Sequence record: ON782582.1
Source: Escherichia phage ECP52
Reading direction: 5' to 3' (one strand)
DNA length: 64,000 bases
In this document: positions 28,257-30,288 of the stretch, one piece after another
Numbering within the stretch: position 1 is the first letter of the stretch
How the letters are laid out: every line of letters starts with the position of its first letter
Notes under the pieces: model-generated
The model's input: only the letters and a program-made list of their open reading frames with translations
Databases searched by the model: none
Told to the model about the DNA's origin: nothing
Position numbers and translations under genes: made by a program

Positions 28257-28463
28257 ATGTTAAATCGTTGGATTAAACCAAATGAAGATTTAGATATTAT
28301 CATTTCACGGCATGTAATGAAGAAATATGAACTACAGCCATGGTCTACAGAAGTTGTTGTGCATTCATTTATGATGTACGCAGATGGTTCTGTCGAATTT
28401 AATGCAGAGATTCGATATGATTATGGTGAAAAGCAAGTCGAATTCAAGAGAGGCTTTTTGTAA
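28257..28463 (+). CDS. hypothetical protein (68 aa)
   Basis: AGAGGAGAGCACT RBS then ATG. Confidence 0.45.
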   Translation: MLNRWIKPNEDLDIIISRHVMKKYELQPWSTEVVVHSFMMYADGSVEFNAEIRYDYGEKQVEFKRGFL

Positions 28464-28801
28464 TGTTTATCTTTAATTGGTTTAAAAGTTTCTTTACGGA
28501 TTTTTTCTCTACAACTCCCGGAGAAGGTGTAGTTCCTATTTCAAATGACTATCTTCCTTTAACTGTAGTTGAGTATGTTTATATGGGAGATGGAACAGTA
28601 GAAGCAGTTATTATGACTTATGAAGAAGCCCAAGAATATTATAAAAATCCTTGGCGCTGGTCAACACCTACATCATCTAATACGCAGAATACACAGTCTA
28701 GTTCTGATTCATATGATACTAATGTTCCTGTTCATGTATGGACGGGCGATTCATGTGGAAGTTCTTGTGATTCTAGTTGTTCATCTACATCTTGCGATTG
28801 A
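28463..28801 (+). CDS. hypothetical protein with Cys/Ser-rich C-terminus (112 aa)
   Basis: C-terminus [17 protein letters not shown]. Confidence 0.4.
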
Positions 28802-28809
28802 GGAAAATT

Positions 28810-29295
28810 ATGAAAGCGATTTTGTTTGAAATGTATATTAGCAGTAATAGTATGTCGTTTGCTAAAGACGTTCCAATTACCGTAGCAGTAATGATTGATA
28901 AGGGTTATTGCGACCCAATGTATCTCGTAAAAAATTTCGTTTCAATGCCAGTTCCAGAAGATGCTGAAATAAAACTTAAAAAGATTGGTATTATTGAAAC
29001 TGTGCCAAATATTCCATTTAGAGCAATTGAAGCATTTACTAAATCAGAATACATTAATGTTAACACAGAAAAATATAATGATGAACCTTTATCTTTTTAT
29101 TCGTACGATTCAGTATATAGTTGGAAAATAGATAAAGGAAATAAATTTATAATTGTGGACGAAGATGCTTTATCATACTTTATTTCTTCTGTATGGAATA
29201 GTTTACATCCAAATTTGCTAAAAATTCATGAATTTGATGATGCTCCTACTGTTGTTTTAGGTAAAACAGATGAAAGTTTTGAAGAAAATGCTTGA
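28810..29295 (+). CDS. hypothetical protein (161 aa)
   Basis: TTGAGGAAAATT RBS then ATG 28810. Confidence 0.45.
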
Positions 29296-29473
29296 ATGGT
29301 TCAGTAGACCAAACTCAATGTATATTGACGATGGTTGGGTTGAACAAGCAAATAAAGAAATGCAGAACGAATCAGAAGAATGGATGAAATCAATGATTAG
29401 TGCTGAGAAAGAAAAGAAATTAGAACGCTCAGCGCTTAAATTAATGAGAGACATCTATGGGGATAAATCATGA
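29270..29473 (+). CDS. hypothetical protein (67 aa)
   Basis: Overlaps previous gene 3' end. Confidence 0.3.
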
Positions 29474-29634
29474 ACAAGAATATGGCGTTAGAAGAGGCTA
29501 AAGCTAAAGCAAATGAAGCAATGGATTTGCTTCTTAAAATTGGCAGTAAAATGATGGAAGAAAATGAGAAATACATTCAGGAAAACAAAATTCCTGACGG
29601 TCCATTAGTAGGCAAAAGGAAATCACATGATTGA
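29470..29634 (+). CDS. hypothetical small protein (54 aa)
   Basis: ATGA overlap with previous stop. Confidence 0.3.
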
Positions 29635-30097
29635 AGTAGCAAAACATTATTCAATAGAATTTATGTCTAAAGAAGGTAAATCAGTAAATACACTTGATAA
29701 AAATTGCTCATTAATTATTCCTTTAGCAGAAAATCCGGATATTTTAATTAAAGATATAAAAGAAAGAAAATATCCAGAAAATGTTATTCTAATTATAAAG
29801 CATACTGAAGATATTTTGCAGAATACTGATTCACCATTTTCTTCTTCTGAAGCTTTAACTATTAAAGGCTATAAAAGAGCTCATGAATATAGTCTTTTTG
29901 ACCTGTTTGAAGATGATAAAGTTAAATTAGCTAGTCAACCTTCTAAAAGTAAAACATTCATTATTGAAGATATTAAAGATATAAATGCATTTGTTAAGAT
30001 GGTCTGGGCTCATTTTGATGTTGGACTACGCTGGAGAATGTCCGAAGAAGAAAGAAAGATTATTGAAGCTAATCGTCAATTTGGTTTTTATCGCTAG
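29627..30097 (+). CDS. hypothetical protein (156 aa)
   Basis: ATG overlapping previous ORF end. Confidence 0.45.
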
Positions 30098-30105
30098 GAA
30101 TTAGT

Positions 30106-30288
30106 ATGGATTTATTTGAGATGTTAGAAGATAATCATTCTACGAATATCCAGAATGATTCTAGTGATTATAAGAAAGAGTACCGTATAGTATTACAGAA
30201 TTATGGAATTGAAGCCCCAGATGCTCTTCTAGAAGAACTAGCTTCATACCATCTTGACCCTCCGCCTTGGGCTCCCTGGGCAAAATAA
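30106..30288 (+). CDS. hypothetical acidic small protein (60 aa)
   Basis: Short ORF after previous stop. Confidence 0.35.
   Translation: MDLFEMLEDNHSTNIQNDSSDYKKEYRIVLQNYGIEAPDALLEELASYHLDPPPWAPWAK

Follow-up and report, generated by a model that had tools for sequence, protein, structure and literature searches.

The seven short ORFs at 28257-30288 of the window, the whole 64,000-nucleotide stretch of Escherichia phage ECP52 DNA (ON782582.1) that we analyzed, are the orthologues of T4 mrh.2, mrh.1, mrh, srh, modA.4, modA.3, and modA.2. The genome in the window is that of a Tequatrovirus (a T4-like phage), and the block consists of already catalogued T4 early genes and is not new. Because all seven were catalogued long ago, the finding itself is ordinary; it carries little weight as a discovery, since it re-finds a known stretch of the most thoroughly studied phage genome. 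We consider it probable that these genes form a T4-type immediate-early, nonessential "host-takeover" operon, which unmodified host RNA polymerase would transcribe during the first minutes after infection. The dispensable delta-12 (39-56) deletion covers the region (PMC6070864).

Layout and early promoter of the block

The T4 matches stand in the right order with high identity for all seven ORFs, which places them in the T4 mrh.2-modA.2 block; the global amino acid identities to T4 are, in gene order, 98.5, 97.3, 75.2, 98.5, 96.3, 94.9, and 98.3%. As in T4 (NC_000866, 13198-15232), the seven genes follow one another on one strand between soc and modB/modA-srd-dda.1-dda, with their order unchanged, and T4 has the same early promoter and soc terminator. 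While six of the proteins are 95 to 98.5% identical to their T4 counterparts, Mrh reaches 75%, and its allele here is PE37-like rather than T4-like. The window further differs from T4 in a Mosigvirus-like soc (45% identical to T4, 94% to p000v), in lacking a dam or segF homologue, and in a small minus-strand ORF between genes 61 and 56. The annotation "Molybdenum ABC transporter ModA" was rejected as a name-collision artefact.

The initial annotation described seven short, coupled ORFs directly upstream of two ADP-ribosyltransferases, and this description stands: all seven were found on the same strand with tight junctions (in order, a TAATG overlap, an 8-nt gap, a 26-nt overlap, an ATGA overlap, an 8-nt overlap, and an 8-nt gap), followed by modB and modA, which are 97 to 98% identical to T4 (Table 1). 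For mrh, the T4-equivalent ATG at 28810 was taken as the start, whereas the mechanical ORF opens at a TTG at 28777. The label "unknown" was only partly justified, since all seven are named T4 genes and five of them (mrh.2, mrh.1, modA.4, modA.3, and modA.2) are uncharacterized; in the open-access literature we found no paper naming these five, their UniProt Y01B-Y01G names included. The supposition that the block lacks homology to characterized T4 proteins fails for mrh, which has a genetic phenotype, and for srh, whose product is a postulated sigma-32 decoy.

Table 1. Positions of genes and signals in the soc-modA interval of the window
Feature	Position	Strand	Description
Intrinsic terminator after soc	28165-28191	+	9-bp GC-rich stem, tetraloop, then T-run
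T4-type early (sigma-70) promoter, predicted	28201-28230	+	consensus match
mrh.2	28257-28463	+	68 aa, pI 5.6; 98.5% to T4 Mrh.2; phrog_1873
mrh.1	28463-28801	+	112 aa, pI 4.05; 97% to T4 Mrh.1; Pfam DUF7206
Cys/Ser/Asp tail of Mrh.1	28745-28798	+	residues 95-112; C-terminus of second ORF
mrh	28810-29295	+	161 aa, pI 4.6; Pfam T4_MRH
srh	29270-29473	+	67 aa; 98.5% to T4 Srh; phrog_2441
modA.4	29470-29634	+	54 aa; 96% to T4; phrog_2681
modA.3	29627-30097	+	156 aa; 95% to T4; Pfam T4_MRH
modA.2	30106-30288	+	60 aa, pI 4.3; 98% to T4; Pfam PF26838
Second early-type promoter, modB-proximal, predicted	30300-30329	+	GTTTAC-17-TATGAT with TGn; downstream block boundary
Putative conserved RNA hairpin hiding modB RBS	30324-30358	+	folding and covariation
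modB	30356-30979	+	ADP-ribosyltransferase; 97% to T4 ModB
modA	30976-31578	+	ADP-ribosyltransferase; 98% to T4 ModA

The upstream boundary of the block is set by the soc terminator, whose hairpin at 28165-28186 (AAGGACTCCTTCGGGAGTCCTT) is followed by TTTTT and whose stem is kept in T4, KIT01, ECML-359, p000v, and FN. Behind it lies a predicted promoter with the -35 element GTTTAC (28201-28206), a TGn motif (28222-28224), and the -10 element TATAAT (28225-28230). With 10 of 12 consensus positions plus the TG, it is the best promoter-like site in the scanned region; one minus-strand site also scores 10 of 12, but without the TG. The site is identical in T4, kept in FN, and kept more loosely in KIT01 and p000v, and its layout agrees with the UP/-35/TGn/-10 architecture described for T4 early promoters (PMC2988021). 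Between 11138 and 16813 there is no mapped T4 middle promoter. It seems, then, that the block does have an early promoter of its own, as had been claimed for it, namely a strong sigma-70 early-type site just after the soc terminator. When genera are compared, the modB-proximal promoter retains both its GTTTAC and its -10 box; its transcripts are predicted to start near 30336.

Conservation and proposed role of the seven proteins

All seven ORFs are intact in the nine Tequatroviruses examined (9/9), with dN/dS values between 0.06 and 0.35 (0.15 for mrh.2 and 0.06 for srh). About 30 loci, spread over at least six Tevenvirinae genera, preserve the gene order. In other genera the proteins are recognizable at 31 to 79% amino acid identity, and protein conservation reaches genera whose DNA no longer aligns; at least 80% of the block is present in 497 phage records. 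The seven ORFs are therefore real genes under purifying selection. One might suspect that some or all of them are spurious ORFs in an AT-rich soc-modB spacer, given their shortness (54 to 161 aa), the AT-rich genome, and the many overlapping ORFs in other frames, but this reading is effectively refuted by the above-described conservation, by a PHROG family match for each ORF, by the membership of four proteins in three Pfam families, and by the expression and purification of Mrh, so that we give it practically no chance.

Searches of the seven proteins against Pfam, NCBIfam, PHROGs, and PADLOC found no enzyme or defense domain but only the proteins' own families, and no sequence relative in the PDB fell below an E value of 0.09, two of the proteins being searched as profiles. 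The block proteins are thus without an enzymatic domain or known fold, and the absence of catalytic motifs reported at the outset was confirmed (Pfam, NCBIfam, and PADLOC returned T4_MRH and DUF7206 only). Rfam and tRNA scans found no RNA gene in the interval. We rejected a distribution beyond T4-like phages: Mrh.1, searched as a profile against 1.84 billion representatives, gave 28 hits only, the T4-like gp56-soc-...-srd context surrounds all 23 viral-contig loci with Mrh.1 relatives, and the named relatives of ModA.2 are from T4-like phages only.

Two of the proteins share a family. Mrh matches PF24070 (T4_MRH) with 145.7 bits over profile positions 1 to 143 of 144, and ModA.3 matches it with 130.3 bits (E = 6e-38), both above the gathering threshold of 24.4 bits; both also match phrog_1234 and are 24% identical to each other, so by profile and pairwise comparison they are to be regarded as distant paralogues. 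Relatives of ModA.3 occur in Dhaka-, Gapriver-, Mosig-, and Karamvirus, those in Mosigvirus and Karamvirus being weak. A model of Mrh had no structural neighbor outside its own family. The name mrh stands for "modulates rpoH." By the title of Frazier and Mosig 1990, as cited in PMC6070864, late gene expression of T4 in an rpoH mutant is inhibited by the mrh product. PMC6070864 and PMC3594737, drawing on Frazier and Mosig 1990 and Mosig 1998, link both mrh and srh to late transcription of T4, which they affect at 42 C and in mutants of rpoH, the gene for the host heat-shock sigma factor sigma-32. Recombinant Mrh, expressed and purified, forms a very large (megadalton) homo-oligomer, with a 3.3 A cryo-EM structure mentioned as "data not shown" (PMC8076793).

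The T4 annotation and reviews (PMC6070864 and PMC3594737) postulate that Srh acts as a decoy of sigma-32, which would compete with sigma-32 for the RNAP core. A single BLASTP comparison aligned it weakly with sigma-32 residues 244 to 279 (32% over 38 aa, E = 7e-4), but the pairwise match was not upheld by profile comparison (hhalign probability 5.8%), and Srh has no match to Pfam Sigma70_r4. The aligned segment is the region 4.2 helix; because this helix is common to all sigma-70-family proteins, only the genetics speak for sigma-32 as the specific target. The 12 C-terminal residues of Srh are invariant, and its long N-terminal form is supported, because W10 and P14 are conserved in genera without mrh. 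The srh and modA.4 genes are translationally coupled by their ATGA overlap, and wherever a locus clearly matches one of them, the other is present as well; the sole exception is phiA85, which lacks srh and has a marginal modA.4 match (38% over 24 aa, E = 0.002). A 31-residue core of ModA.4 is 75 to 91% identical across genera, compared with 30 to 60% for the neighboring genes there. ModA.2, which has no PDB relative, ends in an invariant DPPPW.PW and is the most widely retained member (7/7 genomes compared, 35 loci); its family, PF26838, is restricted to T4-like phages. The gene always lies upstream of an ADP-ribosyltransferase gene, with one extra ORF between them in some genera.

For the favored host-takeover operon, we suppose that the products, which are small, mostly acidic, and nonenzymatic, would act stoichiometrically by binding host proteins. 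Their likeliest targets would be the transcription and stress-response machinery, since the neighbors ModA (RNAP alpha subunit), ModB (translation factors), and Srd (sigma factors) also act on host machinery. Srh and ModA.4 may constitute one co-inherited module, and Mrh.2 and Mrh.1 another. The weak similarity between Srh and sigma-32 and the unpublished mechanism of Mrh count against this operon reading. Gene content also differs between genera, and mrh and mrh.2 occur as divergent alleles: mrh falls into clusters 72 to 93% identical within one genus, and mrh.2 in two loci, L015 and L018, is 59 to 60% identical beside neighbors that are 98% identical. Such variability is equally typical of counter-defense islands, and we also weighed, as an unlikely alternative, that the block is mainly an anti-immunity island in which each small acidic early protein neutralizes a host antiphage system; in that case, what mrh and srh do to sigma-32-dependent phenotypes would be a side effect. 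Early expression, dispensability on laboratory strains (delta-12), and the variable content and alleles would all suit such an island, as would the very acidic products (pI 4.05 for Mrh.1, 4.27 for ModA.2, and 4.6 for Mrh), a property often seen in DNA-mimic inhibitors. However, no similarity to a known inhibitor was seen in the libraries searched, of which PADLOC covers defense proteins only, dN/dS is below 0.35 for all seven genes without diversifying selection at this resolution, and the high cross-genus conservation of Srh, ModA.4, and ModA.2 better fits a conserved housekeeping host target than fast-evolving immune proteins.

The cysteine tail of Mrh.1

Mrh.2 shows the conserved pattern MLNRWIKPN...VHSFMM...EFN.EIR...F.RGFL-COOH, has orthologues of 57 to 68% identity in Dhaka-, Gapriver-, and Mosigvirus, and has no PDB relative. 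Mrh.1 matches the full PF23836 (DUF7206) profile (99.9 bits against a gathering threshold of 25.6, E = 1.6e-28, profile positions 1 to 107 of 107). Its predicted parts are an amphipathic helix at the N-terminus, a small core of beta-hairpin and helix around an 11-residue segment, and a linker and tail that are rich in Ser and disordered. The AlphaFold2 (AF2) model has a mean pLDDT of 53, with about 70 for residues 31 to 60 and less than 50 for residues 67 to 107; because its alignment held only 8 sequences, the low values in the tail are weak evidence of disorder. At such low confidence the model does not lend itself to a fold search.

The Cys/Ser-rich tail noticed in the initial annotation is indeed present as the C-terminus of the second ORF, and its consensus is Y-D-S-G...S-C-D-S-G...C-D-COOH. 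Among 23 family representatives sharing no more than 50% identity, C111 is invariant (23/23) and always at position -2, followed by Asp or Asn, and C102 is found in 20, while C98 and C106 occur in 2 representatives each. C102 and C111 are the sole cysteines in 18 of the 23. A zinc-ribbon- or metallothionein-like site would call for four conserved cysteines in an ordered knuckle or ribbon; the residues around the cysteines have a pLDDT below 50 and no secondary structure in the model from the 8-sequence alignment. Since only two of the four cysteines are conserved and the tail is predicted to be disordered, these data argue against a classical structured four-Cys metal site, and they leave open a two-thiol redox or metal function. 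A lanthipeptide/RiPP precursor reading was rejected, because the TIGR04363 match scores below threshold (14.2 bits against a cut-off of 30); the match is compositional, and Pfam found no maturase-like domain in the block.

Mrh.1 may work via its small folded core together with its acidic, flexible tail and the two conserved thiols in it. That this tail is more than low-complexity sequence and forms a functional two-thiol module, which would either bind a metal or be redox-active, serving as a substrate or decoy of thioredoxin/glutaredoxin, is a doubtful proposal to which we give a small chance. The proposal draws on the conservation of C111 and C102 described above, on the 18 proteins in which they stand alone, with an Asp after each, and on a disordered acidic setting with the same layout as the shuttle tails of class Ia ribonucleotide reductase (RNR). 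Both the class Ia large subunit and Mrh.1 have a flexible acidic C-terminal tail with two Cys within the last 13 residues, and "C-E-S-G" in E. coli NrdA faces "C-D-S-G" in the Mrh.1 family; the E. coli NrdA tail ends in ...DDGCESGACKI, and that of T4 in ...DDCAACKL. In the established biochemistry of RNR, C754 and C759 of E. coli NrdA are the dithiol of the C-terminal tail that serves as a redox shuttle, and the likeness of Mrh.1 is one of design. However, the cysteines of Mrh.1 are spaced by 5 to 10 residues rather than 2 to 4, the last one lies at -2 rather than -3, the terminal residues are unlike those of RNR, and Mrh.1, unlike NrdA, has no RNR domain. The resemblance is only an analogy and not homology. 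Two thiol ligands per chain are also few for a metal, and the compositional nature of the lanthipeptide-precursor match likewise speaks against a functional module. We regard it as a long shot that Mrh.1 represents a new kind of effector, with a disordered acidic two-Cys tail as a redox-active or metal-binding decoy; if true, the tail could mimic the RNR tail that is reduced by thioredoxin or glutaredoxin, tapping or blocking the early host thiol-redox flow.

The residual value of the block lies in the fact that five of its seven conserved early T4 genes have yet to be given a function and that how Mrh works is unpublished; our searches brought up no more recent paper on Mrh. Later work could start from the paralogy of Mrh and ModA.3, from the pairs srh-modA.4 and mrh.2-mrh.1, which are inherited together, from the invariant DPPPW.PW terminus of ModA.2, from the two cysteines that mark the Mrh.1 tail, and from the covarying modB hairpin.

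Comparison with sigma-factor decoys and RBS hairpins of T4

The block proteins resemble T4 AsiA and Srd, which are likewise small and early, carry no enzymatic domain, and have been proposed or demonstrated to target host sigma factors or the RNAP core. The annotation lists Srh as a decoy of sigma-32 and Srd, whose gene lies 1.4 kb downstream, as a decoy of sigma-70/sigma-S; no sequence relation of Srh to AsiA or Srd was seen. The binding of AsiA to sigma-70 region 4 was shown biochemically (PMC2988021), whereas the support for Srh consists of genetics and the weak 38-residue similarity.

A separate observation concerns the start of modB, where a conserved RNA hairpin is predicted to hide the ribosome-binding site (RBS). 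Its 5' arm (30324-30337) starts at the -10 hexamer of the modB-proximal promoter, and its 3' arm (30345-30358) comprises the modB Shine-Dalgarno (SD) sequence GGAGG plus the AUG. The hairpin has a dG of -20.8 kcal/mol (z = -4.0), 92.6% of cells are paired compared with 35 to 51% in slid controls, and double changes occur in 7 of 14 pairs. The modB leader shows the traits of a T4-type RBS-sequestering hairpin, namely a paired SD and start codon, a maintained helix, and a promoter at the 5' arm, and we propose that it may uncouple modB translation from read-through transcripts. The gene is not among the RBS-hairpin genes in PMC3014915, and we found no description of a modB hairpin in the literature. 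That review covers the hairpins of e, soc, 49, and I-TevI. In these, as is predicted for modB, read-through transcripts fold so that a helix encloses the SD and AUG, whereas transcripts that begin at a promoter in or at the 5' arm can be translated. The embedded promoter of modB would be of the early sigma-70 type, whereas those of e, soc, 49, and I-TevI are of the late type.

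The mrh.2-modA.2 block and its T4 counterpart

The initial annotation described seven coupled ORFs between soc and the ADP-ribosyltransferase (ART) genes modB and modA, and the seven same-strand ORFs (28257-30288; 54-161 codons each), the upstream promoter and the Cys/Ser-rich tail encoded by the second ORF all lie where it placed them. At the successive ORF boundaries, a TAATG overlap is followed by an 8-nt gap, then by three overlaps (26 nt, ATGA and 8 nt) and a last gap of 8 nt. Megablast of a 2.5-kb stretch matched 741 phage records, nearly all Tequatrovirus, with phage PE37 closest (98.2%). 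The soc-modB interval of the T4 reference record holds the same genes in the order of the table, and the 3' neighbours are equally close to T4 (ModB 97%, ModA 98%, Srd 98%). From these identities and the T4 gene order, the block is a section of the T4 genome that was already catalogued, and by sequence it is the well-known mrh.2-modA.2 region. The description of the ORFs as unknown holds only in part: all seven are catalogued T4 genes, and mrh and srh have published genetics. The new detail is modest: the Mrh/ModA.3 paralogy, co-inherited modules, the two-cysteine signature of the Mrh.1 tail and a hairpin at modB.

Features of the soc-modB interval, with identity of each product to its T4 counterpart
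Feature	Position	Detail	Identity to T4 (%)
soc 3' end	28158		
GC-rich hairpin and T-run, 3' of soc	28165-28191		
Block promoter (promoter scan)	28201-28206; 28225-28230	-35 GTTTAC; TGn; -10 TATAAT	
First ATG of block	28257	preceded by GAGGAG	
mrh.2	28257-28463		98.5
mrh.1	28463-28801		97.3
mrh	28810-29295		75.2
srh	29270-29473		98.5
modA.4	29470-29634		96.3
modA.3	29627-30097		94.9
modA.2	30106-30288		98.3
Second early-type promoter, 5' of modB	30300-30329	GTTTAC-17-TATGAT	
modB hairpin, 5' arm	30324-30337	starts at -10 hexamer of modB-proximal promoter	
modB hairpin, 3' arm	30345-30358	modB Shine-Dalgarno and AUG	

Family-library scans matched no enzyme or defence domain in any of the seven proteins; Pfam matches were restricted to T4_MRH (PF24070) for Mrh and ModA.3 and DUF7206 (PF23836) for Mrh.1, each protein fell into a separate PHROG, and ModA.2 relatives carry PF26838. 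At 24% identity, Mrh and ModA.3 are, by sequence, distant paralogues. PDB searches returned no relative of solved structure for any of the seven, and the AlphaFold2 model of Mrh, an alpha/beta fold (pLDDT 75, pTM 0.72), matched only T4-like family members in BFVD. Conserved motifs occur in Mrh.2 (MLNRWIKPN...VHSFMM...RGFL-COOH) and at the C terminus of ModA.2 (DPPPW.PW), and cross-genus alignment revealed others in Srh and a near-invariant stretch in ModA.4. In many deposited phage genomes modA.2, modA.3 and modA.4 (29470-30288) are labelled [quoted passage not shown], a name-collision artefact of the T4 locus names; we rejected this label, as the products have no similarity to bacterial ModA.

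Conservation, mosaicism and likely targets

The seven genes are real. All are intact in nine Tequatroviruses, with pairwise dN/dS from 0.06 (srh) up to 0.35 (modA.3), and, beyond DNA alignability, their order is still recognisable at the protein level in Dhaka-, Gapriver-, Mosig-, Karam- and Jiaodavirus genomes and in 23 IMG/VR contigs (about 170 kb). ModA.2 was found in every genome examined, its gene always upstream of an ART gene (in some genera with one extra ORF between). Both Mrh.1 and an MRH-family gene are widely distributed among the compared loci; mrh proper is essentially limited to Tequatrovirus, with a Mosigvirus relative. Every locus clearly matching srh or modA.4 has both, and elsewhere both are absent, the sole exception being phiA85, without srh and with a marginal modA.4 match (38% over 24 aa, E=0.002). 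From this co-occurrence, the ATGA overlap of the two genes and a ModA.4 core whose 75-91% identity between genera far exceeds that of the neighbouring genes, the two proteins may form a module whose target is very conserved. In some GenBank records srh begins at the internal Met17 (29318 rather than 29270), giving 51 aa. The first 16 Srh residues are conserved, with W10 and P14 invariant, even in genera without an overlapping mrh, which supports the long 67-aa form.

Alleles within Tequatrovirus are mosaic over 28257-29295 and in loci L015, L018 and L010. The mrh copies fall into many clusters with 72-93% identity to that of the window, and a second mrh.2 allele, in L015 and L018, is just 59-60% identical, next to neighbours that reach 98%. 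These divergent alleles and a drop in dS from 0.3-0.85 in the left-hand genes soc, mrh.2 and mrh to 0.01-0.07 in the right-hand genes modA.3 and modA.2 indicate, from sequence comparison, recombination breakpoints inside the block. The left flank (26064-28158) is also mosaic relative to T4: gp56 shares only 69% identity with its T4 counterpart, soc is closer to that of Mosigvirus p000v (94%) than to that of T4 (45%), and the whole 64-kb window is without a dam or segF homologue. A minus-strand ORF (27089-27289; MVQKLMALVNAIKG...), antisense to all neighbours, separates primase gene 61 from gene 56 and encodes a hydrophobic 66-aa product that is probably a small membrane protein. Mosig-, Gapriver-, Dhaka- and Jiaodavirus genomes conserve this ORF; it is absent from T4 and PE37, where dam occupies its place.

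The dispensable stretch removed by the delta-12 deletion, which runs from gene 69 to gene 39, includes this region (PMC6070864). Such dispensability, the varying gene content and the divergent mrh and mrh.2 alleles would suit a counter-defence island, the main alternative, whereas the strong conservation of Srh, ModA.4 and ModA.2 across genera argues against it. We favour an immediate-early operon, which unmodified host RNA polymerase would read from a predicted very strong promoter of the T4 early class (PMC2988021). In the matching T4 interval, no middle promoter has been mapped. The small, mostly acidic (pI 4.05-6.6), non-catalytic products presumably bind host proteins, the likely targets being the transcription and stress-response machinery, because both the mrh/srh genetics and the neighbours ModA, ModB and Srd point there. 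Of these neighbours, ModA acts on RNAP alpha, ModB acts on translation factors, and Srd has been postulated to be a sigma decoy.

Citing Mosig et al. (1998) and Frazier and Mosig (1990), PMC6070864 links mrh and srh to T4 late transcription at 42 C and in rpoH (sigma-32) mutants. According to the title of the 1990 paper, late gene expression in an rpoH mutant is inhibited by the mrh product, and a review table (PMC3594737) gives Mrh and Srh as sigma-32 decoys. In a single comparison Srh aligned to residues 244-279 of sigma-32 (region 4.2 helix; 32% identity over 38 residues, E=7e-4), and profile comparison gave only 5.8% probability; we regard the resemblance as suggestive, not as established. 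Recombinant Mrh is described as soluble, as eluting as a megadalton assembly and, with "data not shown", as resolved by cryo-EM at 3.3 A (PMC8076793); PDB and literature searches found no entry and no later paper. In the open-access literature we found no paper naming mrh.1, mrh.2 or modA.2-4.

A hairpin over the modB start

The downstream edge of the block can fold into a hairpin (dG -20.8 kcal/mol, z -4.0) that pairs the modB Shine-Dalgarno and AUG with the -10 region of the second promoter. In an alignment of 14 distinct sequences covering several genera, 92.6% of the hairpin's cells are paired versus 35-51% in slid controls, 7 of the 14 pairs changed on both sides, and none of 500 shuffles reached the covariation score; only the Mosigvirus sequence lacks the hairpin. 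As it buries these start signals, the modB start site should be closed, and its translation blocked, on mRNA reading through from the mrh.2 promoter, and mRNA from the proximal promoter, with a predicted start near 30336, would be free of the 5' arm. Our literature search found no paper describing this hairpin. T4 genes e, soc, 49 and I-TevI are known to follow the same sequestering logic (PMC3014915); modB is absent from the list in that review.

The Mrh.1 tail

Searched as a profile against 1.84 billion representatives, Mrh.1 yielded only 28 relatives. Twenty-three full-length representatives share an N-terminal amphipathic helix (M-I-x-W-L-K-x-L-F), a PGEG-VPI element, a core with invariant Y40, G42, G44 and E47, and a variable Ser-rich linker leading to the tail Y-D-S-G...S-C-D-S-G...C-D-COOH. 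C102 is conserved in 20 of the 23 and C111, always at -2, in all, and in 18 these are the sole cysteines of the protein; C98 and C106 are limited to the T4 type. The AF2 model is of low quality (pLDDT 53): its beta-hairpin/helix core is modestly confident and its tail disordered. The earlier proposal was that the tail could bind metal or form disulfides. With two of four cysteines conserved and the tail disordered, a structured four-Cys metal site is unsupported, and the alignment supports a conserved two-thiol module, which may have a redox or metal function. The arrangement of this module is reminiscent of the flexible dithiol tails carried by the large subunits of class Ia RNR (E. coli NrdA, ...DDGCESGACKI; T4 NrdA, ...DDCAACKL), but since the Cys spacing and end residues differ, this likeness is only a lead.
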